From: Actinomycetota bacterium
GTDB taxonomy: Bacteria; Actinomycetota; UBA4738; HRBIN12
Direction: 5' to 3'
DNA: 64,000 bases
Assembly (NCBI GenBank): GCA_036745475.1
Contig: DAIOFZ010000001.1
Coordinates: 1,211-65,210, forward strand
Shown here: positions 25,883-42,364 of the stretch, one piece after another
Position numbering within the stretch: the first letter of the stretch is position 1
Layout: every line of letters starts with the position of its first letter
Made by a program: the position numbers and the translations under genes
Notes under the pieces: model-generated
The model's database searches: none
What the model was told of the DNA's origin: nothing
What the model saw: the letters and a program-made list of their open reading frames with translations, nothing else

Positions 25883-26320
25883 TCACGCCTCAGCGGCAAG
25901 GACGGCGTTGGATCCAGGGTCCCGGATGCCGCGCGCGAGAGCAGCCGCGATCACATCGCGTCGCGAGATCACCCCAGCCGGCCGGCCGTCTCCCTCCACG
26001 ACGATCAGATGATCGGCTCCGGCATCGTCCATCCTGAGGAGCGCGACGATCAGCGACTCGTCCGCTCCCACCAGCGTCTCGGTCGTGCACACGTCTGCGA
26101 CGTGCAGCTGACCGCGCCCGATGCGCGCCGGAGCGCTCCACCACGCCGGCGCCGCCCGCGCCGACACATCCCAGCACGCGGCCAGGTCGGAGACCGTGAC
26201 ACTGCCGACCACGCGGCCCTCTTCGACGACGACCCCCCAAGCCGCGCCCCTTCCCTCCGACCAGATGAGCGCGTCCTCGACCCGTGTGCCCGGGGACAGG
26301 AGGACGAACTTCCTCGACAT
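25883..26320 (-). CDS. CBS-domain pair protein
   Basis: Two CBS-like units are present (RVEDALIWSEGRGAAWGVVVEEGRVVGSVTVSDL and ESLIVALLRMDDAGADHLIVVEGDGRPAGVISRRDV). The start is probably ATG at 26320 (MSRKF), and the longer ORF to 26386 is the alternative. Confidence 0.6.
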   Translation of the reverse strand: MSRKFVLLSPGTRVEDALIWSEGRGAAWGVVVEEGRVVGSVTVSDLAACWDVSARAAPAWWSAPARIGRGQLHVADVCTTETLVGADESLIVALLRMDDAGADHLIVVEGDGRPAGVISRRDVIAAALARGIRDPGSNAVLAAEA

Positions 26321-26434
26321 CGCGTCCCCAACGCTGCCCAGCCACCCGGTCTCGGCCGGCTGGCGCTCCGACCTCAGATCGTTCATGGCTCACCTCCCAC
26401 CAAGAATCTGAGAGCACCACCTTCGCTTCGGCAG

Positions 26435-26520: not shown

Positions 26521-27861
26521 TTACTGGACGACCAGCGCCGTCACCATGCCGTACATCCCATGTGGTCCTTCGACGTGCGGAAGAATGTGGCAGTGGAATG
26601 CCCAGATCCCCGGATACCGTGCATCCACCAACACGTCGAATCGCTGTCCGGGCGCGATCATGAGTGTGTCGGCCCAATAGCGATTCGACCCGCTTAAGAC
26701 GAACCCATCCTCGGCGATGACCTGGAAGTGATACCCGTGCAGGTGCATCGGGTGGATCTGCGAGCCGTCGTTCGCGAGGTGGATCAGGACCGAGTCGCCG
26801 AGCTCCGCGACGATCGGTTGGGTGGCCGGGAACTCCTTCTCGTTCAACACGAAACCGGTCGGCCCGTCACCGAGGAACAGGGTGTGCTCGACGTCGACCT
26901 TTCCCTCGTACAACGAGCCCCAGTCATCGCCGGGCGGTTGAACGTAGAAGGCACCGTACAGACCCTTCCCGACCTGCTCCGTGGAGTTGAAGTGCGAGTG
27001 GTACACGTACATGCCAGGCGGATCGACCACATCGAACTCGTAGGTGAAGAAGCCGCCAGGCGCGATCGGATCCTGCGTGATGAACGGCACGCCGTCCATG
27101 TCGTTGGGGACGGTCAGGCCGTGGAAATGCATGATCGTCGGTTGTGACATGTCGTTGTGGACGACGATCAGCACGTGGTCGCCCCGGTTCACACGGATCT
27201 CGGGGCCGGGGACGGTTCCGTTGTACGCCATAGCGTCCACGAACACGCCGGGCGAGGTCTCCCACCTCACCTCCGGCGCCGTGAGGTCGAAGACCTTCGC
27301 GCCGTTGTCGTTCCGAGGTTCGACTGGCTGGTTCCCCTGCCCCTCGGTCTCCGCGGGGAAGGCCGCGACGCCGGCCTCGTGTCCGTCGAGCATCTCCTCG
27401 GTGCTGACGGTCCCGCCCGTCACGCCCGTCGAGCCCGTCGTGTCGGCCGAGGCAACCGCGCCCTGTTGCAGCATCAGCGATCCGACCATGCCGGCTTCCT
27501 TGTGGCCTGCGATCGTGCAGAAGGTTTCGTAGGTCCCAGCCTCCAGCGCCGAGATCTCGAGCGTCGCGCTATCCGCCGGCGGGATCTCTGCCGTCGCCTC
27601 CACCTCCTCGCCCGTATCGATCGCGAAGGTATGCGGCGCAGTCCCCTCGTTCGTCACCTCGAACGTCAGTGGTTCGCCCGCGGACGCGTGGATCATGGGT
27701 GGACTGATCGCGAACTCCGTGAGTGAGACCTGAACCGTGGCGGGCGCGGACGCGGCACCCTCCTCCGGGGCTTCCTCGCCCGCCGCGGTGCAGCTGCTTG
27801 CAGCGAGCGTCATCATCAAGGGTGCGGCGAGCGCCGCGTACCGTCGCAGACGGCTGGACAT
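26521..27861 (-). CDS. multicopper oxidase with additional N-terminal cupredoxin (blue-copper) domain; lipoprotein
   Basis: A signal peptide with a Cys is present (LAASSCTA). The N-terminal cupredoxin T1 site is PHTFAID ... FCTIAGHKEAGM. The MCO copper ligand motifs are IMHFHG, YHSHF, HPMHLHG and HCHILPHVEGPHGM. Confidence 0.8.
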   Translation of the reverse strand: MSSRLRRYAALAAPLMMTLAASSCTAAGEEAPEEGAASAPATVQVSLTEFAISPPMIHASAGEPLTFEVTNEGTAPHTFAIDTGEEVEATAEIPPADSATLEISALEAGTYETFCTIAGHKEAGMVGSLMLQQGAVASADTTGSTGVTGGTVSTEEMLDGHEAGVAAFPAETEGQGNQPVEPRNDNGAKVFDLTAPEVRWETSPGVFVDAMAYNGTVPGPEIRVNRGDHVLIVVHNDMSQPTIMHFHGLTVPNDMDGVPFITQDPIAPGGFFTYEFDVVDPPGMYVYHSHFNSTEQVGKGLYGAFYVQPPGDDWGSLYEGKVDVEHTLFLGDGPTGFVLNEKEFPATQPIVAELGDSVLIHLANDGSQIHPMHLHGYHFQVIAEDGFVLSGSNRYWADTLMIAPGQRFDVLVDARYPGIWAFHCHILPHVEGPHGMYGMVTALVVQ

Positions 27862-28966: not shown

Positions 28967-31690
28967 TCACGAGCCGGCGAGCATCTGACGGAGCACCATC
29001 TGCAAGATGCCGCCGTGCCGTTCGTAGTCCACCTCCGCGGCTCCGTCGACGCGCAGGACGGCCTCGAACGCCGTCTCCTCGCCGACCGGGCGGCGGGCGG
29101 TGACCCGCACGCGCTGCCCCGGCTCGATCCCACCCTCGATCCCCGAGACATTGAAGGTCTCAGTCCCGTCGAGCCCCAACGTCGCGGCCGAGTCCCCCGC
29201 CACGTACTCCAGCGGGAGCACCCCCATCCCGACCAGGTTGCTCCGGTGGATCCGTTCGAAGCTCTCCGCGATCACCGTCCGGACGCCGAGGAGCGCGGGA
29301 CCCTTGGCCGCCCAGTCGCGCGAGGAGCCACTGCCGTACTCCTTGCCGGCGAGGACGACCAGCGGAACACCCTCCTCCTGGTAGCGCATCGCCGCGTCGT
29401 AGATCGTCATCAGCGCGCCGTCGGGCAGGTGGGTGGTCCACGGACCCTCCCGATCCGGAACCAGGTCGTTGCGCAGACGGACGTTGGCGAACGTCCCGCG
29501 CATCATCACCTCGTGGTTCCCGCGCCGCGCGCCGTACGAGTTGAAGTCGCGCTGCTCGACGCCGTGGTCCACCAGGTACCGCCCCGCGGGCGAATCCGGT
29601 TTGATCGAGCCCGCCGGTGAGATGTGATCGGTCGTGATGGAGTCACCCACCTTGACGAGGCACCGCGCGCCGGCGATGTCCCCGGGTTCGGTCGGTGCCG
29701 GCTCGAGGTCCGCGAAGAACGGCGGCTCCCGCACGTAGGTCGAGTTCGGATCCCACGCGTACACGGGACCCTCGGGCGTGGGGAGGGCGCGCCACCGGTC
29801 GTCGCCGTCGAAGATCCGCCCGTACTCGCGATCGAACTGTTCCGCCGAGACCGACGCCGCGATCGCCGACCGGACCTCCTCGGGCGAGGGCCACAAGTCG
29901 CGCAGCGAGACCGGCGTGCCGTCCGCCGACGTCCCCAGGGGCTCGCTCGAGAGGTCGACCTCGACGTGTCCGGCCAGCGCGTAGGCGACCACGAGCGGCG
30001 GCGAGGCGAGGTAGCTCGCTCGGACCAGCGGATGGATCCGACCCTCGAAGTTGCGATTCCCCGAGAGCACCGCGACCACGGCGAGGTCGTTGTCCGTCAC
30101 CGCGCTCGCCACCTCGTCGGGCAACGGTCCGGAGTTCCCGATGCAGGTCGTGCATCCGAACCCCACGAGCGAGAAGCCGAGCTTGTCCAGGTAGGGCGTC
30201 AGCCCGGCCGCGTCGAGATACTCGGTCACCACGCGTGAACCCGGAGCGAGGGACGTCTTGACCCACGGCTTGGTGTCCAACCCCGCCTCGACGGCCTTCT
30301 TCGCGAGCAGGCCGGCGGCGATCATCACGGCGGGGTTCGAAGTGTTCGTGCAGCTGGTGATCGCGGCGATCACGACCGAACCGTGGCGGACGACGCCGTG
30401 GTTGAGCGGGACCGGCTCCTCGGTCCCCGGTTCCACGGTCTCGTCGAGATCGACCGCGACGTCCGGGTTCCCGCCCTCCTCCAGGAGCCGACCGACCTCG
30501 TTCGAGTCGGGGTCGGGTTCGAGCCGGTCTCGGAACGATCCGACGAACGAGCCCCACACGCGCGAGAGCGGGACGAGGTCCTGCGGTCGTTTCGGCCCGG
30601 CGACCGAGGGTTCGATCGCGTCGAGGTCGAGCTCGAGGACCTCGGTGAAGGTGGGCTCGGGATCCCCGTCACGCCGGAACAGGCCCTGCTCCTTCGTGTA
30701 GCGCTCGACGAGGTCGATCCGGTCGCCGCGACCCGTGAGCTCGAGGTAGCGCAGCGTCTCGCCGTCGACCGGCCAGAACGCGGAGGTGGCACCGTACTCC
30801 GGGCACATGTTCGACAGCGTGGCGCGATCCGCGAGCTCGAGGGTCGAGCAGCCGTCCCCGAAGAACTCGACGAACCTCCCGACGACGCCGTGCTCGCGGA
30901 GCATCTGGGTGAGCGTGAGGACCAGGTCGGTCGCCGTCGTGCCGGCCGGGAGTGCGCCCGAGACCCGGACCCCCACGACCAGCGGCGTCGGCAGGAACAT
31001 CGGCTGGCCGAGCATCGCGGCCTCGGCCTCGATCCCGCCCACGCCCCACCCGAGGACCCCCAGCCCGTTCACCATCGTCGTGTGCGAGTCCGTCCCGACG
31101 AGCGTGTCCGGGAGCGCCACGCCGTCCTGCACCGCGACCACCCGCCCGAGGTGCTCGAGGTTCACCTGGTGACATATCCCCGCACCGGGCGGGACCACGC
31201 GGATGCCGTCGAACGCCTGCTGTGCCCATCGCAGCAACGCGTACCGTTCCCCGTTGCGCCGGTACTCCCACTCGATGTTCGCCTCGTACGCCTCCGGCGA
31301 GCGGAACAGGTCGACCTGCACCGAGTGATCGATGATCAGATCCACGTCCACCAGCGGGGAAACCCTGGGCGGGTCGCCGCCGGCACGCTCCATCGCCGAT
31401 CGCATCGCGGCCAGGTCGACGACCGCGGGCACGCCCGTGAAGTCCTGCATCAGCACCCGAGAGGGCATGAAGGCAAGGTCGGCGCGCGGCGCCTCCCGCG
31501 GCCAGGACGCGAGTGCTCGGACGTCATCTTCCGAGACGTCGCGGGTACCGGCCCGGCGGAGCAGGTTCTCGAGCAGGATCTTGACGGTGTGCGGGAGCCG
31601 ATCGAGCTCGGCCACCTCCGCGAGCCGGTAGAGCTCGATCCGACCGTCTCCGGTCTCCAGTCGGGTCCGGGCAGCGAACGGGTCACTCAC
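28967..31690 (-). CDS. acnA: aconitate hydratase A
   Basis: 907 aa. The Fe-S cluster ligand regions (ITSCTNTSNP, GFGCTTCIGNSG) and the swivel-domain motifs (GDSITTDHISPAG, RGNHEVMMRGTF) are classic for AcnA. Confidence 0.9.
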   Translation of the reverse strand: MSDPFAARTRLETGDGRIELYRLAEVAELDRLPHTVKILLENLLRRAGTRDVSEDDVRALASWPREAPRADLAFMPSRVLMQDFTGVPAVVDLAAMRSAMERAGGDPPRVSPLVDVDLIIDHSVQVDLFRSPEAYEANIEWEYRRNGERYALLRWAQQAFDGIRVVPPGAGICHQVNLEHLGRVVAVQDGVALPDTLVGTDSHTTMVNGLGVLGWGVGGIEAEAAMLGQPMFLPTPLVVGVRVSGALPAGTTATDLVLTLTQMLREHGVVGRFVEFFGDGCSTLELADRATLSNMCPEYGATSAFWPVDGETLRYLELTGRGDRIDLVERYTKEQGLFRRDGDPEPTFTEVLELDLDAIEPSVAGPKRPQDLVPLSRVWGSFVGSFRDRLEPDPDSNEVGRLLEEGGNPDVAVDLDETVEPGTEEPVPLNHGVVRHGSVVIAAITSCTNTSNPAVMIAAGLLAKKAVEAGLDTKPWVKTSLAPGSRVVTEYLDAAGLTPYLDKLGFSLVGFGCTTCIGNSGPLPDEVASAVTDNDLAVVAVLSGNRNFEGRIHPLVRASYLASPPLVVAYALAGHVEVDLSSEPLGTSADGTPVSLRDLWPSPEEVRSAIAASVSAEQFDREYGRIFDGDDRWRALPTPEGPVYAWDPNSTYVREPPFFADLEPAPTEPGDIAGARCLVKVGDSITTDHISPAGSIKPDSPAGRYLVDHGVEQRDFNSYGARRGNHEVMMRGTFANVRLRNDLVPDREGPWTTHLPDGALMTIYDAAMRYQEEGVPLVVLAGKEYGSGSSRDWAAKGPALLGVRTVIAESFERIHRSNLVGMGVLPLEYVAGDSAATLGLDGTETFNVSGIEGGIEPGQRVRVTARRPVGEETAFEAVLRVDGAAEVDYERHGGILQMVLRQMLAGS

Positions 31691-31702: not shown

Positions 31703-32203
31703 TCAGACGCCTCGGCGAAGCTCGGCGATCGCCTCACGATGCCCGATCCTGGTCTCGCGCCGGATCTTGGCCTCGTGCTGACGACGCCGCTCCTCCTCGG
31801 TCTCGGCGATCAGCGGCGGGACCGGTCTCGGGTTGCCCTCGTCGTCGAGCGCTACGAACACGAGGTACGCGCTGGAGGTGTGGGTCCTCGTGCCCGTCTC
31901 GAGCTCCTCGGATTCGACGCGGACGCCGACCTCGAGCGAGGTCGTCCCCACGTCGTTCACCGACGCCTCCACGGTCACGGTGTCCCCCACGTGAACCGGC
32001 GCGAGGAACGACATCTCGTCCATCGAGACCGTTACGCACATGCCCCCGGCGTGTTTGAACGCGGCGAGCCCCGCGGCGGTGTCGACGAGCTTCATCACAA
32101 CGCCCCCGTGGACGAGCCCGGCGATGTTCGCGTCGGTGATCTCCATCAGCTGGACGAGCGTCACCTGGCTCGAGGCCACGCGTCGGGGTTCGAGATGCCC
32201 CAC
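31703..32203 (-). CDS. hotdog-fold acyl-CoA thioesterase (YciA-like)
   Basis: The pattern LVQLMEITDANIAGLVHGGVVMKLVDTAAGLAA...VSMDEMSF matches the YciA/BFIT acyl-CoA hydrolase family. Confidence 0.7.
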   Translation of the reverse strand: MGHLEPRRVASSQVTLVQLMEITDANIAGLVHGGVVMKLVDTAAGLAAFKHAGGMCVTVSMDEMSFLAPVHVGDTVTVEASVNDVGTTSLEVGVRVESEELETGTRTHTSSAYLVFVALDDEGNPRPVPPLIAETEEERRRQHEAKIRRETRIGHREAIAELRRGV

Positions 32204-32235
32204 GTGCGGATTCTAGGCGGCGGGGCGCCGGTAGC

Positions 32236-33024
32236 ATGCCCCGCGTGCGTCGACTCCTCCCCCTCGTCGCGATCCTCGCCATCGCCGGGGCGGTCTGTTC
32301 GGGTTCGGACGAGCCGCCCCGTACACCGTCCGGAACGATCGCTCCGACGACCACGCAGACCACGCCGTCACCCACACCCAGCGCCGAGCCCTCGATCCCG
32401 GACCCCGGTCCCGCCGAGGATCCCGACGTTCGGCTGCCCGAAGGCATGCCGGCGATCGTGGACGACGCCGACGACCTCGCGCTGATCGCGTCGGGGGACT
32501 TCACCCCGCTCCTTCCCCCCGGTGCGAGCCACGGGAGCCGCGTCGCCCTTCGAGACCCGATCGAGCAGATCGTCCTGACCTGGTCGGACGGGGGCCCGCT
32601 CCGTCGGCGGAACGGGCTCATCGTGTGGCAGCGACCCGAGAACGCGGGCTGGCACGCCGTGTACGCCTTCACGGATCCGGCGCGCTTCGGTGTGTTCGGT
32701 ATCCGCGTCGACGCCGGCGAGCTGACGGATGACGCGATCGCCGACGTCCTGAGCTTCGAGGACGTCGGGGGCAGCGGCGCCTGCGGGACGTACCGTGTGA
32801 TCGCCTCCACCCTGGGCGACGCGAGTGAGATCTTCCGCCGCGACGTGTGCGACACGCAGATCGCGATCTCCGGCGGTGACCTCCGGATCCGCGAGGCCGT
32901 CTTCCACGCAGACGACCCGCATTGCTGCCCGAGCGCGTTCCGCGAGTCGACCTTGCGCTGGAACGGGACCTCGTGGGACGAGGTCTGGTCCGAGGTCGTC
33001 CCGAACGACCTCGGGGGGCGCTGA
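32236..33024 (+). CDS. secreted/lipoprotein-like hypothetical protein
   Basis: A signal peptide is present (LLPLVAILAIAGAVCSGS), followed by a Pro/Thr-rich linker. The C-terminal domain has 6 Cys. Confidence 0.5.
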   Translation: MPRVRRLLPLVAILAIAGAVCSGSDEPPRTPSGTIAPTTTQTTPSPTPSAEPSIPDPGPAEDPDVRLPEGMPAIVDDADDLALIASGDFTPLLPPGASHGSRVALRDPIEQIVLTWSDGGPLRRRNGLIVWQRPENAGWHAVYAFTDPARFGVFGIRVDAGELTDDAIADVLSFEDVGGSGACGTYRVIASTLGDASEIFRRDVCDTQIAISGGDLRIREAVFHADDPHCCPSAFRESTLRWNGTSWDEVWSEVVPNDLGGR

Positions 33025-33181
33025 GCGAACCCTCGAAGGCTCCGCCCCGTCGCCCGGTCGCCCGTCCACCGGTCGACGGACCGCCGCGGAACTCGTGCGG
33101 CGAAGGGCTTACGTCGGCCCCCTGACCGGCCGATACAGGGAGCGATCGCGGCGATCGACGTACGGAAGGCAGGACCTGAGC

Positions 33182-36100
33182 GTGAGCGTTGCCGTTGGAG
33201 CGCGGAGAGTGGCATCCGCGGTGCTCGCACTTGCCCTCGCAGGTGCGGCCGCGCTCGCGTATCTGCAGGCCGGCGAGGTGGACGACCGGCTGTCGCTCGA
33301 AACGCGTCGGACCGCCGAACATGCCGCCGAGGCCGTCGCGTCGAGGCTCACGACCGAGGACGTCGAGCGCCCGATGGGCGGGACCCGGGCCGACGAGATC
33401 TCCTCGTTCGTCGAGCAGCGGCTGCTCGACCCGAGCGAATCGGTCACGATCTGGAGCACCGACGCGGTCGTCGTGTTCGCGGCGGATCCCTCCCTGATCG
33501 GCACCCAGGACGGTCGACTCAGCGCCCAGATCTCGCGTGCCCTCTCGAACGGGACCCAGACCGAGACCAGGGACGGATCCCTGCACGCCTTCGTCGCCGT
33601 CGTGGTGAGTGAGGGGACGCGGCTCGTGGCCGAGGTCATCCGTCCGGACGAGGCCTCGTCTGCCGGTCGGCCCTGGATCTACGCGTCGATCGCCGCCGGC
33701 CTGCTCGCGTTCCTGGCACTGCTCGGGGCCATCCGCACCTCCTCCGGCCGTGAGACCTCTCGATCCGGCGGGTTCGGCGCTGACGACCTACGCCGGGAGC
33801 GCACGACCCTGCTGCAGGTGCAGGGGGCGCTCGAGCTGTCACGGACCGCGGAGGCGAACCTGCGGAGCGAGCTCGAGCGCGTGGCAGGCGAGCTCGCCCA
33901 GACCAAGGACGCGCTGGCCGCCAAGGAGGCCTCCGTCGGTGAGGTCGACTCGAGGATCCGGGCCGCCGAGGAACAGGCGGCGCGCGCCGAGGCCGAGCTC
34001 CGTGCGGGCGTGACCGTCCGCGAGAAGGTCGCTCGGCTGATCGAGACCGAGCTCCAGACCACACGGGCAGAGTTGGCGGTCGTCAAGCACCAGCACGAGG
34101 AGGCGCAGCGGCAGCTCGAGTCGGGGCGGATGGCCGAAGCCGAGCGCGAGGCCGCGGCCGCCGAGCGCGATGCCCTCGCGGCGGAACGCGACGCGATCGC
34201 CGCCGAGCGGGATGCCCTCCGGGGTCTCGACGAACGCCTCCGCGGTGAGCTGGACGCCGCGAGGGCGAACCTCGACATCCTCGGCCGCGAGATGACGGAG
34301 CTCGGCGACCGGTATCAGGAATCGGCTGCTCGAGCCGCCCACGCCGAGGCCAAGGTGCTCGACATGAACGCCGATCTCCGCGAGATCGGAGACCGGCCGG
34401 ACCTCACGAGCGAGCTCCTGCAGACCCGCACCGAGCTCGACAGGACGAAGAAGGAGCTCGGCGCGGCGCTGCAGGAGGTGGAGACGCTCGGGCAGCAGTT
34501 GGCGGTCTCCCGCGGCGACCTCGAGGTCGTTCGCGGGGGGCAGGAGCTCGGCTCCGCGGCGCTCGACGAGGCGCGCGAGAAGCTCTCGGCGTCGAAGGCC
34601 GCGCTCGAGATCGCACGGTCGAACGAGGAGCGAGCCCTGGCCGAAGCGGCCGAGGCGCGCTCCTCGTTCGACGTCATCTCGGCGGATCTGTCGACGTCGC
34701 ACGAGGAAGCGGAAGCGGCCATGGCCGAGGCGACGGCGCTCACCTGGCGGCTGGACGAACAGGTCGTGCGTGCGGCCAGCGCTGAGGCCAGGGTGTCCGA
34801 GCTGTCGCAGCGGGTCACCGAGCTCGAGTCCCGGCCGGACCGCACCCCCGCGCTCGAGGAGGCGAAGGCGGCGCTGGAGACGGCGAAGGATCAGCTGGCG
34901 CATCGCGACGCGCAGTTCGCCGAGGCGCGGAGCGAGCTCGACGCAGTTTGGATGTCGCTGCAGGCCGCCACCGCGAAGACCGACGCGCTCGAGGGCGAGG
35001 TCGAGCGGGCAGAGGCCAGGGCGGCGGAGCTCGCCGCGGAGATCGAACTTCGGGACGCGAGAGGTGCGGAGCTCGGGGGGGAGGTCGGGCGAGCCGAGGC
35101 TCGGGCCCAGGCTGCCGAGGCCCGCGCGATCGATCTCTCCGGCCGGATCGAGGCGGGCGACACCCGTCTGCACGAGCAAGAAGATCGCGCCGAGCGCGCC
35201 GAAGGGCTCGTCACGGAGCTCGCGGCCCGGGCGGAACGAGCGGAGGTCCGGGCGGACGAGATGGCCGAGCGGGCCGAGGCAGCGGAGATCGCCGCCACCC
35301 TCGAGCACGAGAGCCCGGAGCTCGTGGGCGCGCGAGCCGAGGTCGAGAACCTGACGGCCGGGCTCGCTGCCGTCATAAGCGAGCTCGACGCCGCGGCGAT
35401 GTTCGCCAGTGCGCTCGTGCAACGTAACGAGGAGCTCGAGGAGCAGGTGGCGTCGCAGGCCGTCGAGGCCGAGGTCGAAGCCGCCGATGCCCGGGCGCGA
35501 TTGCTCGAGACCCGGGAATCGCTCGCCCGGCTCCAGGAGACCGTCGAGCATCGTGACGAGCTCGGATCCTTCGTCCAGGAGGCCCCGTCGATGACTCCCA
35601 GCGCCGCGACCGAGGTCGCGGACGCGCTCTCGGTCAACGTGAAGCGTTCGCTGTCGGCGATCTTCGAACTCGCCCGAACCCTGTCCACAGGACAGGAGAG
35701 CAAGGACGACGAGCGGTTGCTCTATCAACTGATGACGCAGGCCAAGCGGATGGAGCACGCGATCCGTGACATCTTCGACGCGGATCGGCTCACGCGTGGC
35801 GAGCTCGTGCTCGAGCGCCGCAGCACCGATATCGACGCGCTGGTGCGCCGCGTGGTCAGCGAGTTTCCGTTCGCCGACGACCGCGACCTCGACGTCGCTG
35901 TCGAGCCGGCGACGATCATGGTCGACCGCGTTCGCGTGGAGCGCCTGGTGGACGACCTGCTCACCTCGGTCGTCGGGCGCACCGAGGCCGGTGATCGCAT
36001 CGCGCTCGCCCTCGAACGATCCCCCGACGGCGTGCTCATCTCGGTGGAGGGCGGGACCCCCCTGAACGGGGACGGAACCGCCGAGGCGGCCGCGGCGTTC

Positions 36101-36241
36101 CTGGCCGAGCTCCACGGGGGGTGGGCCAGGGCCGAGCGGCTCTCGGACGGGACGGGGGTGGTCCGGGCGTTCCTGCCCAGCGGTCGGAACGCCGGCACGG
36201 CGGATGGCGCCGATCCCGAGACTGCCGCGGCCCTCGGCTGA
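33182..36241 (+). CDS. membrane-anchored giant coiled-coil protein with a C-terminal degenerate histidine-kinase-like (HisKA/HATPase_c) module
   Basis: The N-terminus has two TM helices (VASAVLALALAGAAALAYL, WIYASIAAGLLAFLALLGAI) flanking an extracytoplasmic domain of about 150 aa. About 700 aa follow with heptad-repeat and AERDA-repeat composition. The C-terminus has an H-box-like SVNVKRSLSAI lacking the His, an N-box-like LVDDLLTSVVGRT, a G1-like ISVEGGTPLNGDG and a G2-like FLAELHGGWARAE. The GTG start at 33182 has a GGAAGG 11 nt upstream. The track ORF start at 32825 overlaps the previous gene. Confidence 0.65.
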   Translation: MSVAVGARRVASAVLALALAGAAALAYLQAGEVDDRLSLETRRTAEHAAEAVASRLTTEDVERPMGGTRADEISSFVEQRLLDPSESVTIWSTDAVVVFAADPSLIGTQDGRLSAQISRALSNGTQTETRDGSLHAFVAVVVSEGTRLVAEVIRPDEASSAGRPWIYASIAAGLLAFLALLGAIRTSSGRETSRSGGFGADDLRRERTTLLQVQGALELSRTAEANLRSELERVAGELAQTKDALAAKEASVGEVDSRIRAAEEQAARAEAELRAGVTVREKVARLIETELQTTRAELAVVKHQHEEAQRQLESGRMAEAEREAAAAERDALAAERDAIAAERDALRGLDERLRGELDAARANLDILGREMTELGDRYQESAARAAHAEAKVLDMNADLREIGDRPDLTSELLQTRTELDRTKKELGAALQEVETLGQQLAVSRGDLEVVRGGQELGSAALDEAREKLSASKAALEIARSNEERALAEAAEARSSFDVISADLSTSHEEAEAAMAEATALTWRLDEQVVRAASAEARVSELSQRVTELESRPDRTPALEEAKAALETAKDQLAHRDAQFAEARSELDAVWMSLQAATAKTDALEGEVERAEARAAELAAEIELRDARGAELGGEVGRAEARAQAAEARAIDLSGRIEAGDTRLHEQEDRAERAEGLVTELAARAERAEVRADEMAERAEAAEIAATLEHESPELVGARAEVENLTAGLAAVISELDAAAMFASALVQRNEELEEQVASQAVEAEVEAADARARLLETRESLARLQETVEHRDELGSFVQEAPSMTPSAATEVADALSVNVKRSLSAIFELARTLSTGQESKDDERLLYQLMTQAKRMEHAIRDIFDADRLTRGELVLERRSTDIDALVRRVVSEFPFADDRDLDVAVEPATIMVDRVRVERLVDDLLTSVVGRTEAGDRIALALERSPDGVLISVEGGTPLNGDGTAEAAAAFLAELHGGWARAERLSDGTGVVRAFLPSGRNAGTADGADPETAAALG

Positions 36242-36255
36242 GCCGAGCGCCCCCC

Positions 36256-38538
36256 CTACACCAGGACCGCGATGCTCCGTCGGCGTCCCACCTTCTGCAC
36301 GGAGATCGTCGCGGGGAACTGATCCTTGACCTGCTCGGCGTGCGTGACCACGAACAGCTGGTGGAACCGCGACGAGAGCCGGGCGAGTGCCTGCACCATC
36401 AGATCCTTCCGCTCCTCGTCCAGCGAGGCGAGCACCTCGTCCAGGACCATCATCCCGACGTCTGCCCCCGACAGGCGTGACAGCTGCGTCGAGATCGCCA
36501 CCCGGAGCGCGAGGTTCGCGAGATCGGTCTCCGAACCGGAGAAGCGATCGATCGCGAAGTACGAGTCCCCGTCGGCGATCTGGATCGTGAGCTTCTCCTC
36601 GTCGACCTTGAGGTCGTCGTACTCGTGGTTCGTGAGCTCGCGGAACAGCGCCTCCGCCTCGCGGGAGAGCTCGGGCCCGATGCGCGCCACCAGATGGTTG
36701 CGGAACCCCTCGAGCAACAGCGCCACCCGCTCGACGTACCGCGCGTCCGAACGCAGCTCGTCGACCCTGGCCTGCGTCTCCTTGGCCTGACGCAACGCGG
36801 CGACGAGGCCGGCCTCCGCCTTCTCGGCGTCCTTCAGGGCGTCGCTCGCCCCGCGTTCGGTCTCCCGCGCCTGATCGAGCGCGGCGATCGCTTCCTCGAG
36901 CTCGTCGTGCAGGCGCTCGTGCGCGATTTCGTCGAACGCAAGCCCCTCGGCCTCCTCCGCCAGCTCGGCGAGCTCGCGGTCGAGGAGTTCTTTCCGCCGC
37001 CGCGCGGCGTCCAGGTCGCGTTCGGCCTGCGCGAGGTGCTGCCGTTCGGTCCGGAGCTCCGCCGCGCGGGTGCCGAGGGTTCGCGCGCGTTCGGCGCTCG
37101 CCCGAAGCTCGTCGAGCTCGGGGACGGCCCCGCCGAAGGGCTCCGACAGCGTGGCCACCTCGGCCGAGAGCGATCCGATCCGCTCGGCGAGCTGCGACCG
37201 GTGCGCGTCCTCTTCTCGCGAGCGCTCTCCCGCCTCGTTCGCGGCGACCTGGCCCTTCTCCGCCCGTGCTCGCTCGGCGAGCGCCTTCTTGACCGCCGCC
37301 GCGGCGGTCGCCGCGGTCCTCTTCGCGCCCGCGACCTCCGCCTTGCAGTGCTTCAGGTACGAGGCGAAGTCGTCTCCCAGCGGGCGGCCGCAGGTGGGGC
37401 AGGGCTGGGTCGGATCGGCTTCCGTCGCGCGCTCGAGCCGCTCGAGGGCCTGCTCCAGGAGCGTCGACCGATGTGCCCGTTCGGCCTCGGCACCGGCGAC
37501 GGCGGACCGAGCGCGTCCGACCGCGCCCGCCGCGGCCTCGAGCGCCGAGAGCACGGCCGCGCGGTCGGTCTGGGGGATCGCGTCCAGCCGCGCCTGTGTC
37601 CGCGCGAGCTCTTCCCCCCGTTCCATCAGGGCGGTGCCGAGCCGCAGCCGATCGTCGATCCCGGTCAGCCCCGCGAGCTCGTCGTCGATGGCGGGCAGCT
37701 CTTCGACCGCGGCGTTCATCCGCTCGACGCGCTCGACCAGCATCTCGAGCTGCTCCGCCGCGTGTTGGCTCTGTTCGGTCTTCGAGCGGAGCTCGACCGT
37801 CAGCTTCTCGATGTGTTGGCGCACGGCGTCCGACCCCGCGAACGCCTTCTTGGCCGCCTTCTCCACGGCGACCGCCTCCTTCAGATGGGCGGCCGCCGCC
37901 TTCGCGAGATGGGTGGCCTCCGTCACCACGTCCTTCGCGGCCTTCAGATCCGCCTCGAGCGCGGCGACGTCGGGAACGGCGCCCGTGAGCTGGTCCGCGC
38001 TCTCCCTGGTCGCCCTCGCCTCGCGCCGCGACGCGTTGCGGGCGTCCTCGACCGGCCGAATCCCCAGCAGACGCAATGCCATCTCCTTGCGTCTGCCCGG
38101 CGTCACGTCCGAGAAGGCGTCGAGCTGCTTCTGCTCGGCGTAGACCGAGGCGCGGAACACCTGCAGGTCCATGTGGAGCAGGCCGCGGATCTCGGCGTCG
38201 ACCTCGCTGGTGCCCGAAGCCAGGGTCACGCCCCCGCCGAACAACTCCGCCTCGGGGGCATGGCCCTTGCCCCGGATCGTCCGCCGGACCTCGTACGGCT
38301 GCCCCGCGTGCTCGAACACGAGCCGGACCTCGCAGTCGGTGAGGACGCCGTGTGTCCGGATCTCCTGCTTCTTGGTCCGGGCGGCATCGACGCCGTAGCA
38401 CGCGAACGCGATGCTCTCCATCAGCGTGGACTTTCCGGCGCCGTTGGCGCCGAAGATCCCGATCACGCGGGCGGGCAGTTCGAGGTCGACCTCCTCGAAG
38501 ACCCGGTAGTTGCGCAGGGAGAGCTCGAGCACCCTCAT
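36256..38538 (-). CDS. sbcC: SbcC/Rad50-family SMC-like ATPase (double-strand break repair)
   Basis: The N-terminal Walker A is MRVLELSLRNYRVF...GANGAGKST. A central coiled coil carries a CxxC zinc hook (PCPTCGRPL). The C-terminal signature and D-loop are SGSETDLANLALRVAI...MMVLDEVLASLD. ATG at 38538 overlaps the sbcD stop (ATGA). The track ORF to 40953 is an antisense-style extension. Confidence 0.85.
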   Translation of the reverse strand: MRVLELSLRNYRVFEEVDLELPARVIGIFGANGAGKSTLMESIAFACYGVDAARTKKQEIRTHGVLTDCEVRLVFEHAGQPYEVRRTIRGKGHAPEAELFGGGVTLASGTSEVDAEIRGLLHMDLQVFRASVYAEQKQLDAFSDVTPGRRKEMALRLLGIRPVEDARNASRREARATRESADQLTGAVPDVAALEADLKAAKDVVTEATHLAKAAAAHLKEAVAVEKAAKKAFAGSDAVRQHIEKLTVELRSKTEQSQHAAEQLEMLVERVERMNAAVEELPAIDDELAGLTGIDDRLRLGTALMERGEELARTQARLDAIPQTDRAAVLSALEAAAGAVGRARSAVAGAEAERAHRSTLLEQALERLERATEADPTQPCPTCGRPLGDDFASYLKHCKAEVAGAKRTAATAAAAVKKALAERARAEKGQVAANEAGERSREEDAHRSQLAERIGSLSAEVATLSEPFGGAVPELDELRASAERARTLGTRAAELRTERQHLAQAERDLDAARRRKELLDRELAELAEEAEGLAFDEIAHERLHDELEEAIAALDQARETERGASDALKDAEKAEAGLVAALRQAKETQARVDELRSDARYVERVALLLEGFRNHLVARIGPELSREAEALFRELTNHEYDDLKVDEEKLTIQIADGDSYFAIDRFSGSETDLANLALRVAISTQLSRLSGADVGMMVLDEVLASLDEERKDLMVQALARLSSRFHQLFVVTHAEQVKDQFPATISVQKVGRRRSIAVLV

Positions 38539-39665
38539 GCGCTCTCGCCGCGCGCGTCCTCGAGGAACCTCGCGCCGAGGGAGACGACGCGCTCGCGTTC
38601 GAGTCCGGCGAGATCCTGGAGCTCGACGTAGGAGACCCACTCCTGCTCGATCGAACCGATCGTCGGGCCGCCCTGCACGGCCATCGCGTCCGCCCCGAGC
38701 TCGGGCTCGACCTGGACCCAGAGCGCGCCGGGCACCGCCTCCTGGAACTGCTCGAGCCCGACCTGCCGGTAGGACGCGGGGTCGACCTCGTTCAGGTACA
38801 CGCGGACGACGGCGCCGTCGGGCGTCCCCTTCGCGGCGCGTTCCACGGCGTCGACCAGCTCGCCCGCCGAGAGGCTTGCCGCCGCGACGGAGACCGTCGC
38901 GAGCGGGCGCTCGTGCGGGTTCTCGATGTGGTCGACAGCCCCCGAGTTCGTGTCGATCACGACGAGGCCCTTCGAGGTCCCCGGCGAGTCGGCGAACGAG
39001 AAGGTGTCGGTCGAGCCCGCGTACCAGGTGCGCCTGGAGATCTTCTGCACCGCGTGGTAGTGGCCGAGGACCACGAGGTCGAACGCTCGGTCGAACGCCG
39101 ACTCCTCGACCTCGAGCTCGTTGATGTCGCGGTACGCACGAGAGGGAAGCGACGTGAGGGCCACGTGGGCGATCAGCAGGTTCGTCGTGTCCGCCCGGAC
39201 CGCGCCCGAGGCCACCTTCAACTGTTCGCGCAGGTCGTCGACCGCGAGCGTCTGCGGAACCGCGTGGACGGCGACCCCCGCGACGTCGGCGCGGACCGCC
39301 TCCATCCGCCACGCGAACGCGACGCCGGGGAAGACCCGTTCGAGCGCGTCGTAGGGCGAGCCCGTCCCGCGGATCCGCGGGGTGTCGTGGTTGCCGCTGA
39401 TCGCTACCCCGCGCAGGCCGGCGTCGTCGAGCCGCTGCAGGCCGGCCAGGACCTGCGCGAACGTCCGATAGGAGGGGCGAGCGTGGTCGAAGATGTCGCC
39501 GAGCCACAGGAATCCGTCGGGCTTCTGGCGGATCGTCTCGTCGACCCCCCACGTGAACGAGCGGAGGAAGTCCTCCTCCCGGACGTTGCGGCCACGGTCG
39601 TCCCGCAGGTGCGCGAGATGCGAACGCCCGAGGTGCGCGTCCCCGAGCGCGACGAGGCGCGCCAT
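38535..39665 (-). CDS. sbcD: SbcD/Mre11-family metallophosphoesterase nuclease
   Basis: The calcineurin-like phosphoesterase motifs are present (LGDAHLG, WLGDIFDH, ISGNHD, VLGHYH). Its start abuts the herA stop. Confidence 0.85.
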   Translation of the reverse strand: MARLVALGDAHLGRSHLAHLRDDRGRNVREEDFLRSFTWGVDETIRQKPDGFLWLGDIFDHARPSYRTFAQVLAGLQRLDDAGLRGVAISGNHDTPRIRGTGSPYDALERVFPGVAFAWRMEAVRADVAGVAVHAVPQTLAVDDLREQLKVASGAVRADTTNLLIAHVALTSLPSRAYRDINELEVEESAFDRAFDLVVLGHYHAVQKISRRTWYAGSTDTFSFADSPGTSKGLVVIDTNSGAVDHIENPHERPLATVSVAAASLSAGELVDAVERAAKGTPDGAVVRVYLNEVDPASYRQVGLEQFQEAVPGALWVQVEPELGADAMAVQGGPTIGSIEQEWVSYVELQDLAGLERERVVSLGARFLEDARGESA

Positions 39666-41294
39666 CTACTCGGTGAACCCCTTCGAGGCGTCCGGGGGCC
39701 GGGGCGGGAGCGGTGACGGCCCGGCGACCGACTTCAGGTAGTCCTCGTACAGGTAGATCTGCGCGGGCAGCGCGAAGGGCGCTTCGAGGTTGGTCACGAT
39801 CGCCTCGCCCGGCATCAGCGTTTGGATCTCGGGCCCGAGGTCGGAGATGTCCTGCTTGGAGCTGCCGCGCAGGATGTTCCGGTCCTTCTCGTCGGCGAGG
39901 CCGAGGATGAAGAACGTGTTGAACTGCGAGAGCAGCTCGTCGTCGATCAGCTTCGGCTGCTGAGAAACGGCGCACAGGCCGACCTTGAACTTCCGTCCCT
40001 CCCGGGCGAGCCGCGGGAACACGTTCTCGTCGGAGCGGGCGACTCGCGACAGCACGCGCTGTGCCTCCTCGAGACCGATCAGCGTCGGCGGCAGCGCCGC
40101 GAACCGGTCTCGATCCTCGAGGAACAGGTTCGCGTACGCATCGAGCACGGTCCGCGTGATCACCGACGCGACGAGGATCTCCTCCATCGACGAGAGCCCG
40201 CTGGTGTCGACGAGCACGCCGAACCCGTCCATCAGCTCGTCGACGATGCGCGCCGACAGCGAGGGCTGCGACGCGTCGCGCGAGATGCACGGCATATCGA
40301 GGATCCGTTGCGCGCGCCGCTGGATCACCTGCATCGTGCTGGTCGCGACGCCGAGGTCCTCGGCGAGCGACGCGACGTCCTGCTCCTCGCCCACCCTGAC
40401 GATCCACTCCTCGTGGAAGTACCGGATCAGCCGGTAGATCGCGTCCTCCTGGGCGTGGCTCCACACGTACGCGGTCTGCAGGTCCCCCTGGGTGAGCTCG
40501 GCGAGCGAGAGCCGGAGCGAGGTCGCGCCCGCCCCCGCGGCACGCGTCGCGTAGACCTTCAGCCGATCCAGCGCCCACGGGTGTGAGCGCAGCCCCTTGC
40601 GCGTCCCGCTCCCGCCCTCGAGGTACTCGCCGTGCGGATCGAACAGCAGGCAGGCGTACCGACCCTGGGACGCGAGGATCTGCCCGGCGAGCACCTTCAT
40701 CAGGTTCGACTTGCCCATACCCGTGGTGGCGAAGACGCCGACGTGCGACGTGAGCGTGTCGCCCTGGACCCCGATCTCGAGGTCGATCGTGTCCTCGCCG
40801 GAGCGGAGCAGGCCGACCCGAACGTCGCCCATGCGCTCGCGCAGGAAGTCGAAGTCCTCGACGGTCGGCGCCGTCACCCTCGCGAACTGCGCCGGGAGCG
40901 ACTTCGGCTTGCGGAACGCGCCCGCCGCGTCGATGTACCCGAGCGGCTGGCACGTCGCGACCTTGTACAGCCGCTGTTCGGGGTCTCGAAGCGTGTACTC
41001 GGTCCCGGCGACGTCGCCCGACATGTACGAGCCCGCGGTGCGTTCGGACCAGGAGGGATCAGAGGAGTCCGAGCCGTAGGTCACCTGGATCACCCGGAAC
41101 AGGAACCGGCGGCCGCGCTCGGGATCCTCGGCCGCCAGCAGCTCGCCGAGGAACAGGTCCGTCCCGTAGAAGGAGCGGAACGTGGACTCGAGGACGTTCC
41201 TCCCGAAGATCCGGCCCTTGTAGCCCCCCGTAGACCGGGGGCTACCGCTCGCGCGTTCGCGCTCGCTCCTTGAGCCCCCCGCGCCCCCCGTCAC
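39666..41294 (-). CDS. herA: HerA-like (DUF87/FtsK-HerA superfamily) hexameric DNA translocase ATPase
   Basis: The P-loop is VFATTGMGKSNLMKVL. The N-terminal barrel-like region is GRIFGRNV...FRVIQV. The C-terminus is AVSQQP...LGLADEKDRNIL. The GTG start at 41294 overlaps the nurA stop (GTGA). Upstream of it the long ORF is R/G-rich non-family sequence. Confidence 0.75.
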   Translation of the reverse strand: MTGGAGGSRSERERASGSPRSTGGYKGRIFGRNVLESTFRSFYGTDLFLGELLAAEDPERGRRFLFRVIQVTYGSDSSDPSWSERTAGSYMSGDVAGTEYTLRDPEQRLYKVATCQPLGYIDAAGAFRKPKSLPAQFARVTAPTVEDFDFLRERMGDVRVGLLRSGEDTIDLEIGVQGDTLTSHVGVFATTGMGKSNLMKVLAGQILASQGRYACLLFDPHGEYLEGGSGTRKGLRSHPWALDRLKVYATRAAGAGATSLRLSLAELTQGDLQTAYVWSHAQEDAIYRLIRYFHEEWIVRVGEEQDVASLAEDLGVATSTMQVIQRRAQRILDMPCISRDASQPSLSARIVDELMDGFGVLVDTSGLSSMEEILVASVITRTVLDAYANLFLEDRDRFAALPPTLIGLEEAQRVLSRVARSDENVFPRLAREGRKFKVGLCAVSQQPKLIDDELLSQFNTFFILGLADEKDRNILRGSSKQDISDLGPEIQTLMPGEAIVTNLEAPFALPAQIYLYEDYLKSVAGPSPLPPRPPDASKGFTE

Positions 41295-42364
41295 CGGTTC
41301 AACACCTCGTGGAAGTCCTGGAACAGCAGCTCGACATCGTCCTCGGCCATCCCGCGACGCGAGAGCGCCTCCCGGAACGCCCGCCGAACGTCCACCACGT
41401 CGTAGCCCGTGACGCGGGCGGCCTGATGCGCCCGAGCGAGCGGGTAGGGGTACCCGACGAACGCGGGGTCGTCCGCGAGCCCGGCGAGCCGGCCGAGCAC
41501 CTCGAGCGCCGGGGCCGGCCCGCGCGCCACGTCTACCCGGAACGCGTGCGCCGCGGTCGGGGCAAGGTGGGCGACGAAGATGTCGCCGACGTACAGCCGG
41601 CCGAACACCGGATCCGTCGAGATCCGCGCCGCCCACCGCGACGGCCCGACCTCCCGGTCGCCGCGGCGCTTGAGCAGCGTCACGAGCGGCGCGTTCCGGC
41701 CCCAGTACAACGTCGACGCCTTGACCACCGCCGCGAGCGACGCGCCGCGCGCCACGGCCTCCTCGTGCACGCGCCGCACGATCTGCTGCGGCACGAGCGG
41801 GCCGCCGTGCAGTGAGCCATCGACCAGCACCAGGTCCCCGGGGGCAGCCTCGCGGACCGTTCGCCCGACCGCTCCCCACTCGGCCCACTCGCGCAAGGCG
41901 TCGACGGGTCTCGGAAGGTCCGGCAGGCGCTCGGGTTCGTACCCGCAGAGCTCGGTGAGCGTGGCCCGGGCGAGCCTGGCCATCTCCTCGGGCTCGACGG
42001 CCCGAACGTCGAGCTGCGGCCGTTCGACGTCCACGGTCCGCCCGTCCTGGAACCGGACCCGGGCGGCCCGGAACGCCGCGACCTGGAACGACCGCCCGTC
42101 GGCCACCGTGCAGGACCCCCCGTCCACGGCCCAGACCGTGCCGGGTTCGGCAGGCGTGACCGGTGAGAGCTCGAACGCGTCGGGATGCCCGGGCACGACG
42201 ACCGCCTCGTCGAGGCCGAGCTGACCCTCGAGCACCCGGATCTCCGAGGCCGGCCGCTCGAGGAGGTCCACCACGAAAGAGGCGGCCGAGTCCAGGTGGT
42301 CACGCTCAACGAGGTCGAGGCTGAGCACGCGAGCCGTTCCCTCCCGTGCCTGAGCCTCCGCCAC
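41291..42364 (-). CDS. nurA: NurA-family 5'-3' nuclease
   Basis: The NurA motif I is TVWAVDGGS, and the later motif is LVLVDGSLHGG. It is the first gene of a four-gene minus-strand operon. Confidence 0.7.
   Translation of the reverse strand: MAEAQAREGTARVLSLDLVERDHLDSAASFVVDLLERPASEIRVLEGQLGLDEAVVVPGHPDAFELSPVTPAEPGTVWAVDGGSCTVADGRSFQVAAFRAARVRFQDGRTVDVERPQLDVRAVEPEEMARLARATLTELCGYEPERLPDLPRPVDALREWAEWGAVGRTVREAAPGDLVLVDGSLHGGPLVPQQIVRRVHEEAVARGASLAAVVKASTLYWGRNAPLVTLLKRRGDREVGPSRWAARISTDPVFGRLYVGDIFVAHLAPTAAHAFRVDVARGPAPALEVLGRLAGLADDPAFVGYPYPLARAHQAARVTGYDVVDVRRAFREALSRRGMAEDDVELLFQDFHEVLNR

Follow-up and report, generated by a model that had tools for sequence, protein, structure and literature searches.

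The window analysed here, a stretch of 64,000 nucleotides from an uncultured member of the Actinomycetota, encodes at positions 33182..36241 of the forward strand a membrane protein of 1019 residues, which is very likely a conserved histidine pseudokinase of the following architecture: two transmembrane (TM) helices enclosing a Cache-type extracytoplasmic domain, a rod of coiled coil some 600 residues long, and a C-terminal module with the fold of a histidine kinase from which all catalytic motifs are missing. The protein belongs to the HisKA superfamily by fold and descent and has none of the functional hallmarks of a histidine kinase; a kinase fold that is kept, catalytic residues that are lost and conservation under selection are the features that place it among the pseudokinases. 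An earlier reading of the window, made from the sequence only, had taken the gene product for an inactive kinase-like protein unlike a standard two-component sensor, and the kinase fold matches together with the missing motifs bear this out. We hypothesize, at roughly even chances, that the protein is a membrane-anchored tether or scaffold which would present its non-catalytic kinase-like module as a docking site.

The kinase ancestry of the C-terminus is evident from both sequence and structure. A profile built from nine C-termini of the family (profile A2) matches HK853 with an E-value of 5.6e-12, DivL with 1.3e-11 and RetS with ~4e-7. The AlphaFold2 (AF2) model of the last 303 residues, computed from 67 sequences with a predicted local distance difference test (pLDDT) score of 88.2, contains in this order the end helix of the rod, an unstructured linker, a DHp hairpin and an alpha/beta domain. 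The DHp-like hairpin, with its helices at model residues 90-120 and 127-155, comprises residues 806-871 of the protein (35597..35794, + strand) according to the profile alignment with HK853, the family alignment and the model, and the CA-like alpha/beta domain, which has no ATP lid, comprises residues 880-999 (35819..36178, + strand). Foldseek retrieves DivL first with this model (4q20, E 7.8e-15), followed by HK853, other kinases and RetS; E-values of 1e-14 to 1e-11 to DivL, HK853 and others identify a DHp hairpin combined with a Bergerat-type CA fold. General domain models do not detect this relationship at their thresholds: Pfam HisKA (PF00512) scores 13.4 bits against a cut-off of 26.9, Pfam HATPase_c (PF02518) has no match in the protein, and all NCBIfam kinase matches lie far below their cut-offs, so that in the HMMER comparison proposed by the sequence-only reading none of the HisKA, HATPase_c and HAMP models reaches threshold. 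Proteins of a sister clade, such as P0024, P0043, P0060 and P0072, carry an extra conserved amphipathic tail in their last 25 residues, (D)PNHWV(K/Q)AEQALVRELRELSQGKA(R/K), which follows the CA-like domain; the window protein is without this tail and ends with ...ADGADPETAAALG.

What remains of the catalytic apparatus in this fold? The profile alignment places S-V-N-V-K-R-S-L over S-H-E-L-R-T-P-L and puts V818 (35633-35635, + strand), in the DHp, at the position of the phospho-acceptor His260 of HK853, while S929 occupies the place of the Mg-binding Asn380 of the N-box; the absence of both residues had been noticed from the sequence alone. Across the lid-less family the His position is held by V, L, M, I, K or T, with His in 2 of ~47 clusters, and the Asn column is likewise variable, Asn being kept in part of the family and in all 65 His-containing relatives. 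Two motifs that had been regarded as retained are not. In the supposed G1-like VEGGTPLNGDG, the DxGxG positions read G-G-T-P-L, with G957 in place of the Asp and the motif glycines replaced as well, and the supposed G2-like ELHGGWA falls, in the alignment, on the conserved HGG helix located behind the G2 box. From G1 to this helix the segment measures 14-16 residues in the family versus 38 in the 65 His-containing relatives, and since it is so much shorter, the alignment indicates that about 24 residues including the F and G2 boxes, and with them the ATP lid, are deleted. HK853 residues 181-216, which span the F box, the G2 box and the lid, correspondingly have no counterpart, the gap being bridged by about 10 residues, and a 12-residue loop (957-968) stands for all three elements in the AF2 model, where the earlier reading had suggested looking for a lid. 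The deletion of the lid makes the protein more thoroughly dead than that reading had supposed. The phosphatase motif of HisKA proteins (E/D-x-x-T/N) is absent from the DHp, too.

Because the His, the Mg-binding Asn, G1, the F and G2 boxes and the ATP lid have all been lost, the conclusion that the C-terminal module cannot autophosphorylate is strongly supported by its predicted motif content, and the module very probably does not bind ATP. Two substitutes for the missing phospho-acceptor were considered and rejected: the KHK at the end of DHp helix 1 occurs in the sister clade only, and the His of helix 2 (RMEHAI) is N, R or D in several members. No conserved alternative His is found in the DHp helices, which removes the concern that a genuine acceptor had been misaligned. 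We therefore regard as highly improbable an active kinase with non-canonical chemistry, in which another residue would be phosphorylated or ATP would be bound differently. Such a kinase could be argued for from the His at the H-box position of P0153 and P0157 and from the N-box Asn kept in part of the family, but all of the at least 45 members have lost the F box, the G2 box and the lid by deletion, G1 is lost, the H-box residue is not conserved and the DHp offers no other conserved His.

The best 150 matches of profile A2, sorted by H-box residue and lid length, give some insight into how this state was reached. Genuine kinases with His, N-box Asn and a 38-residue lid, mostly containing PAS domains, make up 65 of them; in 14 the His is missing (A, S, N, G or T instead) but the Asn is retained along with a lid of 32-39 residues; a further 45, together with 15 fragments, are without His and have a lid segment of 14-16 residues, constituting the family of the window protein; and 2 have His and no lid. 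The latter are P0153 and P0157, lid-less representatives with the H-box ELSHDARKSL, whose His could be a reversion or a chance occurrence at a variable site and, given the missing lid, is unlikely to restore autophosphorylation. Five intermediate-like proteins (P0181, P0187, P0104, P0176 and P0192) have the His replaced by N, S, A or Q. Four of them retain the N-box Asn, and three a lid of 35-38 residues that includes a G2-like GxGL; P0181 and P0187 also share the succession of TM helix, Cache domain, TM helix and coiled coil. A profile of the family ectodomain (A3) is found only in His-less proteins, including the lid-keeping P0181 and P0187. The occurrence of this ectodomain in His-less proteins that still possess a lid suggests a putative order of events in which the membrane-anchored Cache and rod architecture arose and the His was lost first, the lid being deleted later.

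The loss of catalysis was not followed by decay of the gene. The ratio of nonsynonymous to synonymous substitution rates (dN/dS), estimated by the Nei-Gojobori method against four orthologues, is 0.25-0.61 in the ectodomain, 0.42-0.59 in the rod and 0.33-0.36 in the DHp-CA module, and dN itself is lowest in the DHp-CA module and highest in the rod. Strong codon bias, with a GC content at third codon positions (GC3) of 86-90%, lowers dS, so that the true dN/dS values are probably lower still. In comparison with the distant clade, the C-terminal domain is 32-34% identical and the ectodomain only 19-22%. With dN/dS below 1 throughout and the dead kinase module as the most constrained part, these sequence comparisons strongly support the view that the whole architecture is kept under purifying selection across an uncultured lineage of Actinomycetota. 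The dS values between the window gene and its close orthologues in two loci (L002 and L007) are uneven along the gene, falling from ~0.44 in the ectodomain through 0.28-0.30 in the rod to 0.14-0.15 in the DHp-CA module, which could be caused by recombination, by gene conversion or by stronger codon or nucleotide constraint at the 3' end.

Since the window has a GC content of ~70%, long spurious open reading frames are common in it, and the reality of this gene deserves separate consideration. In the frame 32825-36241 (+ strand), GC is distributed over the three codon positions as expected of a real gene (GC3 0.86), and the reading frame 33182-36241 within it translates without stops, which confirms a single intact product of 1019 residues where about 1020 had been reported. 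Its GTG start at 33182 is preceded by GGAAGG 11 nt upstream and coincides with the ATG or GTG starts of homologues opening with MSVA or VSVA; the start is supported by homologues that begin, with ATG, at the same position. The identical or a near-identical protein is present in independent NCBI, ENA, JGI and Logan assemblies. That the gene is a pseudogene, the product of a frameshift or an artefact of assembly is for these reasons hardly credible. Many database homologues are indeed short C-terminal fragments or frameshifted calls, but these lie on short contigs or in error-prone long-read assemblies, while the window frame is intact, dN/dS is below 1 and the full-length architecture is kept in relatives with as little as 34% identity in the C-terminal domain. 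These relatives share the single-frame organization, which also excludes the fusion of two genes by frameshift that the sequence-only reading had named as an outcome fatal to its interpretation.

Profile A2, run with HMMER exhaustively against 1.84 billion cluster representatives, reveals a clear top tier of ~47 clusters (at 50% identity), each with a score above 190 bits over one uninterrupted stretch. The full-length members of this tier are 713-1509 residues long, with TM helices near residues 14-32 and 176-194 and with A, E, R, L and Q accounting for 52-63% of all residues; all share the layout of TM helix, ectodomain, TM helix and rod. In the species representatives of GTDB, scanned with a single peptide pattern and hence undersampled, all 38 loci come from metagenome-assembled genomes that are labelled as uncultured Actinomycetota or Actinomycetes or, in one case, as Thermoleophilaceae. 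The database searches found no cultured representative, and none of the family matches is a UniRef-sourced entry, which makes the family invisible to standard annotation. The family appears confined to uncultured soil Actinomycetota.

The exact protein is deposited as 'hypothetical protein [Actinomycetota bacterium]' (HKI28152.1), and other entries of the family bear automatic names such as 'chromosome segregation ATPase' and 'DNA repair exonuclease SbcCD ATPase subunit'. The names attached to P0002, P0004, P0006, P0008 and P0013 are mutually inconsistent and also include 'peptidoglycan hydrolase CwlO-like protein' and 'DUF3084 family'. Judged by what the models match, such names are compositional artefacts of the coiled coil. 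Pfam and NCBIfam searches with the full protein and with its N- and C-terminal pieces return the sub-threshold kinase matches and coiled-coil noise only (tropomyosin, SMC, Rad50 and HrpB7 models). An identity as an SMC/Rad50 ATPase was considered and rejected: only the coiled-coil parts of these models match, with 18-42 bits versus cut-offs of 300-1087, and Pfam finds neither an SMC_N nor an AAA domain in the protein, which has no head with Walker A and B motifs. PADLOC likewise gives no defence-system match for the gene or for its upstream neighbour, apart from coiled-coil noise to LmuB and JetC.

At the N-terminal end of the protein, hydropathy and the AF2 model agree on two hydrophobic helices, at approximately residues 10-30 and 164-186, which bracket an ectodomain of about 130 residues; the pair of TM helices is as previously described, and the domain between them is somewhat smaller than the 150 residues given before. 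TM1 (33209..33271, + strand) lies within an AF2 helix of residues 2-53, and its N-terminus is cytoplasmic by the positive-inside rule. TM2 occupies 33671..33739 (+ strand). Arg-rich segments precede TM1 and follow TM2, which places the residues between them outside the cytoplasm, and a two-pass topology with the N-terminus inside and an sCache/PDC-type sensor domain (residues 31-163; 33272..33670, + strand) outside the membrane is strongly supported. The ectodomain fold search scored 10.7 to DctB, 10.1 to CitA and 9.9 to the WalK ectodomain, and Pfam sCache_3_2 is matched by 6 of 28 family ectodomains with a best E-value of 3.6e-8, though not by the window protein itself; its long N-terminal helix and PAS-like alpha/beta core between TM helices, along with these model matches in the family, place the domain in the Cache superfamily as an sCache_3-like sensor. 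A sequence search of the PDB with the ectodomain profile returned nothing, so only the fold search is informative there.

Between the ectodomain and the kinase-like module lies the cytoplasmic coiled-coil rod of residues 201-792 (33782..35557, + strand), recognized by its periodicity, composition, proline positions and the similarity of its modules. It is composed of 21% A, 17% E, 11% R and 11% L and contains four prolines only (P406, P552, P556 and P712). The hydrophobic pattern in sliding windows peaks at a period of 3.5 residues (z = 8.5 versus 200 shuffles), is weaker at 3.6 and is absent at 3.7, and the best heptad register remains constant across runs of 70-125 residues. This predicted pattern is the signature of a coiled coil and not of a generic amphipathic or single alpha-helix; a single-alpha-helix domain, considered separately, was ruled out by the 11% Leu and the 3.5-residue hydrophobic period. 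The periodicity test thus gives no sign of the low coiled-coil scores that could have overturned the sequence-only reading, and the heptad rod it described is confirmed, if shorter at ~600 residues than the ~700 proposed. The AERDA-type repeat to which much of the rod had been attributed, a tandem array of 3.9 copies of 21 nt encoding the heptad AAERDA(L/I) (34139..34219, + strand), covers four heptads, that is, only about 28 residues.

The rod is built in a modular manner. Its prolines sit in a recurring (R/S)P(D/E)(L/R) motif, and conserved kinks of the form RPD(L/R)T or SPEL at P406, P552/556 and P712 split it into modules, of which the two at residues 376-525 and 523-685 resemble one another significantly (z = 6.7 in a shuffle-calibrated local alignment); BLAST of the rod against itself gives no repeats at E below 1e-3. 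Longer homologues hold extra copies of the module, and rod length among homologues varies about threefold, from ~350 to 1000 residues, from which we conclude that the rod is modular and that its length, as read from these alignments, is altered by duplication and loss of modules. If fully extended, the rod of the window protein would measure up to ~88 nm (596 residues x 0.1485 nm). Its last 75 residues form one helix with pLDDT of 93-97 in the AF2 model.

Both ends of the rod are nevertheless joined to their neighbours by segments of a different kind, which is at odds with the picture of a nearly uninterrupted coiled coil running into the kinase. Behind TM2, a Gly/Ser/Arg-rich juxtamembrane linker (residues 187-200; 33740..33781, + strand), with the stretch RTSSGRETSRSGGFGADD, is modelled with low confidence (pLDDT 62-67). 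It is not conserved in the family, being part of a juxtamembrane region of at least 100 Pro-rich residues in the sister clade, and Pfam finds no HAMP domain in the window protein. Between rod and DHp, a flexible Pro-containing linker at approximately residues 793-805 (35558..35596, + strand), with the sequence DELGSFVQEAPSMTPSAA (~792-805), comprises 14 residues without secondary structure and with pLDDT partly below 50 in AF2; in model numbering, confidence falls below 50 at residues 78-84 and secondary structure is missing over 76-89. The equivalent region is Pro/Gly-rich in distant homologues.

What could be the function of a kinase without catalysis at the end of such a rod? In canonical sensor kinases the signal travels through continuous helices from TM2 via a HAMP domain or S-helix into DHp helix 1. 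The two rod junctions described here are non-helical and poorly conserved and the rod varies about threefold in length, which makes a helical piston or rotation signal from sensor to output unlikely. It is because a register- or piston-type signal is hard to reconcile with these junctions and rod lengths that we favour a tether or scaffold; the sequence-only reading had left open a scaffold and a mechanical transducer, and the flexible linkers speak for the former. A docking role is suggested by the precedents in which dead modules of this kind work by binding: DivL binds DivK~P (PMC4211667), RetS forms a heteromer with the DHp of GacS (PMC8498467), and the Streptomyces protein PsmA binds DivIVA via a dimerising PAS-DHp-CA region and modulates polar growth (PMC12963549). 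By analogy, a dimeric membrane-anchored rod would present the DHp four-helix bundle and the lid-less CA domain as a docking surface for a receiver domain, the DHp of another kinase or a cytoskeletal protein such as DivIVA, and docking would keep the partner a fixed way off the membrane or gather it in one place. The ectodomain, possibly together with the predicted lipoprotein encoded directly upstream (c7), would govern where or whether the tether assembles, in that the Cache domain would control clustering, localisation or stability and not the conformation of the output. That the Cache domain is conserved implies a continuing role for a cue or partner outside the cytoplasm, for which c7 may be considered.

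The same conservation could be taken to mean that the protein is a true transmembrane transducer, a regulatory pseudokinase of the DivL or RetS type in which a ligand shifts the coiled coil and thereby switches the binding state of the DHp-CA module towards a response regulator, such as the nearby receiver-GGDEF protein, or towards a real kinase. We consider this possible but unlikely. The confidently folded Cache domain, the place of the DHp helices among the most conserved parts of the protein, and DivL and RetS as top matches in sequence and fold are all in agreement with it, as is the 'reverse' signalling of DivL through its dead kinase (PMC4211667); the presence of a receiver-GGDEF gene in the conserved neighbourhood also points in this direction. 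Such transmission is, however, difficult to imagine through non-helical, poorly conserved linkers at both rod ends with neither a HAMP nor an S-helix junction, and register can hardly be transmitted over 500-1000 residues in rods that change length about threefold. The receiver-GGDEF gene, for its part, is 8 kb away with genes on the other strand in between, in a block whose order is generally conserved.

If the rod itself were the functional part, the protein could instead be a cytoskeleton-like element whose rods form filaments or a sub-membrane lattice in the manner of Scy, FilP, crescentin and DivIVA-type proteins, anchored to the envelope by the ectodomain and the lipoprotein, with the kinase-like module as a mere dimerisation cap. 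About 60% of the protein is heptad coiled coil of repeated modular build, the weak profile matches are only to tropomyosin and SMC-type coiled coils, and the conserved block also includes the gene of a cell-wall ligase of the LCP family; long coiled-coil proteins are known to serve polar growth in Actinomycetota (PMC12963549). We find this explanation rather improbable nonetheless: it is the DHp-CA module that is most conserved and the rod that has the highest dN, a conserved CA-like domain would be needless in a mere dimerisation cap, and nothing in the analysis points to filament formation.

For the tether or scaffold that we favour, a candidate partner is c7, a predicted lipoprotein of 262 residues (32236..33024, + strand; from translation and alignment) that precedes the pseudokinase gene on the same strand with a gap of 157 nt. 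Its signal peptide, in which the lipobox Cys is invariant, is followed by a tether rich in Pro, Ser and Thr and by a domain of ~190 residues that contains four invariant Cys, including those of an HCCPS motif, and a D-x-T-G-D motif; the invariant Cys of the alignment are C21, C183, C205, C230 and C231. No Pfam or NCBIfam family matches c7, and its 492 homologues are all named hypothetical. As the only contig retrieved for the exact protein is 4.5 kb long, gene context was taken from 40 related loci, which were compared by means of BLAST clustering and a crude gene caller based on GC3. In ~30 of the 31 loci that cover this region (among them L002, L003 and L013-L038), c7 is the immediate upstream neighbour of the pseudokinase gene and has the same orientation. 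The two genes are bracketed by genes of the opposite strand, and neither a sigma-70-type promoter nor a terminator was detected between them when 32100-36500 was scanned, a result which neither proves nor excludes an operon in an actinobacterium of 70% GC. Accessory lipoproteins act on the ectodomains of other sensor kinases, LpqB with MtrB and YycH/YycI with WalK, a parallel that we offer as a lead only. On this predicted pairing, c7 may be a partner of the pseudokinase.

The wider neighbourhood follows a conserved order of receiver-GGDEF protein, extracytoplasmic function (ECF) sigma factor, RskA anti-sigma factor, aconitase, thioesterase, c7, pseudokinase, thiolase and FtsH-like protease. 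In the window, the genes of a formate/nitrite transporter (25019-25759), of a CBS-pair protein (25883-26386) and of a multicopper oxidase that has an additional cupredoxin domain (26521-27861) stand in place of the ECF sigma/RskA pair, between the receiver-GGDEF gene (24079-24930, + strand) and the aconitase gene (28967-31690); the aconitase gene and that of a 4HBT thioesterase (31703-32203) lie on the strand opposite to the pseudokinase gene. Downstream and convergent with the pseudokinase gene are SbcC/Rad50 (36256-38538), SbcD/Mre11 (38535-39665), HerA (39666 to ~41260) and NurA (41291-42364), all on the - strand, a cluster that corresponds to the archaeal-type DNA-end resection set. This cluster sits between the pseudokinase gene and the thiolase gene only in the clade of the window, and because the thiolase gene holds the same position in the sister clade, the cluster seems to have been inserted into a conserved backbone, an event through which c7 and the pseudokinase gene stayed together. 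A functional link of the pseudokinase to the cluster was considered and rejected, the cluster being absent beside the gene in the sister clade. The statement that no partner response regulator is adjacent holds in the strict sense, as the gene has no cognate regulator in the same operon and is flanked by c7 upstream and the convergent SbcC gene downstream, and is to be qualified by the receiver-GGDEF gene of the conserved neighbourhood, which is the nearest gene for a receiver protein.

Several observations weigh against a tether or scaffold assisted by c7. The well-conserved Cache ectodomain suggests a continuing importance of ligand sensing and fits a purely passive scaffold less well. The evidence for the coiled coil comes from a home-made periodicity test and not from a calibrated predictor, and the 'flexibility' of the linker is read from the confidence of a monomer AF2 model and from sequence composition. 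As to c7, one relative (L004) does not have it upstream, and its adjacency could be inherited gene order and not functional coupling, for the order of the whole block is conserved in the lineage and adjacency is therefore no proof of function.

How does the window protein relate to known systems? DivL of Caulobacter crescentus is its best fold match and close to its best sequence match, at an identity of only ~20%, and is similarly a membrane-tethered protein with a DHp-CA module that is without a phospho-acceptor His and is used for binding. In DivL, by contrast, the His is replaced by Tyr, several PAS domains lie in the cytoplasmic part, the CA domain is largely intact and there is neither a Cache ectodomain nor a long coiled coil, whereas the window protein carries a lid-less module on a rod of ~600 residues. 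RetS of Pseudomonas aeruginosa, found among both the sequence and the fold matches, also acts by binding through a kinase-like DHp-CA module (PMC8498467); it is unlike the window protein in being a hybrid kinase with receiver domains, a different periplasmic domain, no long coiled coil and a CA domain that is present. The polarisome protein PsmA (SCO4009 / Vnz18495) is, like the window protein, actinobacterial and HisKA-derived, with a variable His position, degenerate ATP-binding motifs, no autokinase activity and a spacer of ~700 residues, and acts by interaction with DivIVA (PMC12963549). PsmA, however, is a cytoplasmic protein with the arrangement PAS-PAS-DHp-CA, disordered Pro-rich linker and receiver, and is restricted to Streptomycetaceae (PMC12963549), whereas in the window protein the spacer precedes the kinase module and is a coiled coil, two TM helices and a Cache ectodomain are present and a receiver is not; the two are compared by description, and shared ancestry beyond the HisKA superfamily is not implied. 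Kinases of the CitA/DcuS type combine an sCache_3 ectodomain with HisKA, but they are active, have short cytoplasmic PAS linkers and are encoded with response regulators in the same operon, in contrast to the 600-residue rod, flexible junctions and dead kinase seen here.

Long coiled-coil scaffolds that recruit signalling proteins or organise growth zones offer another comparison, with PodJ and TipN of Caulobacter, both membrane-anchored, and Scy and FilP of Streptomyces as examples. To our knowledge, none of the four has a histidine-kinase-like domain or a Cache ectodomain, and no sequence relationship of the window protein to them was detected. In the literature searched we found no description of an architecture joining a Cache domain, a long coiled coil and a lid-less dead kinase; the search included one directed at coiled-coil pseudo-histidine kinases in Actinobacteria. 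Functionally the protein belongs to the histidine pseudokinases, which are a known kind of protein and not a single clade, and it is set apart from each of those described by its architecture and by how completely the catalytic motifs have been lost.

Histidine pseudokinases are few, and DivL, RetS and PsmA have each revealed a way of signalling or of organizing the cell without phosphorylation. The family described here is an extreme case: none of the catalytic motifs survives and the ATP lid has been cut out, but no other part of the protein is as well conserved as this module. Its intermediate-like relatives, having lost first the His, with lid and Asn kept, and then the lid, could show how a kinase turns into a binding module. 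It is a well-defined, conserved and uncharacterised family that is misannotated in some source databases. In its boldest form, which we regard as doubtful, the proposal would be that a Cache receptor with a rigid modular ruler of 50-150 nm, a lid-less kinase end and a dedicated Cys-rich lipoprotein constitutes a new cell-organising device, a physical link by which the condition of the envelope would determine where in the depth of the cell a cytoplasmic partner is positioned, for instance a component of the polarisome or divisome or a response regulator that makes c-di-GMP. Were this so, a deep uncultured branch of the Actinomycetota would be signalling through controlled distance or sequestration rather than phosphorylation.

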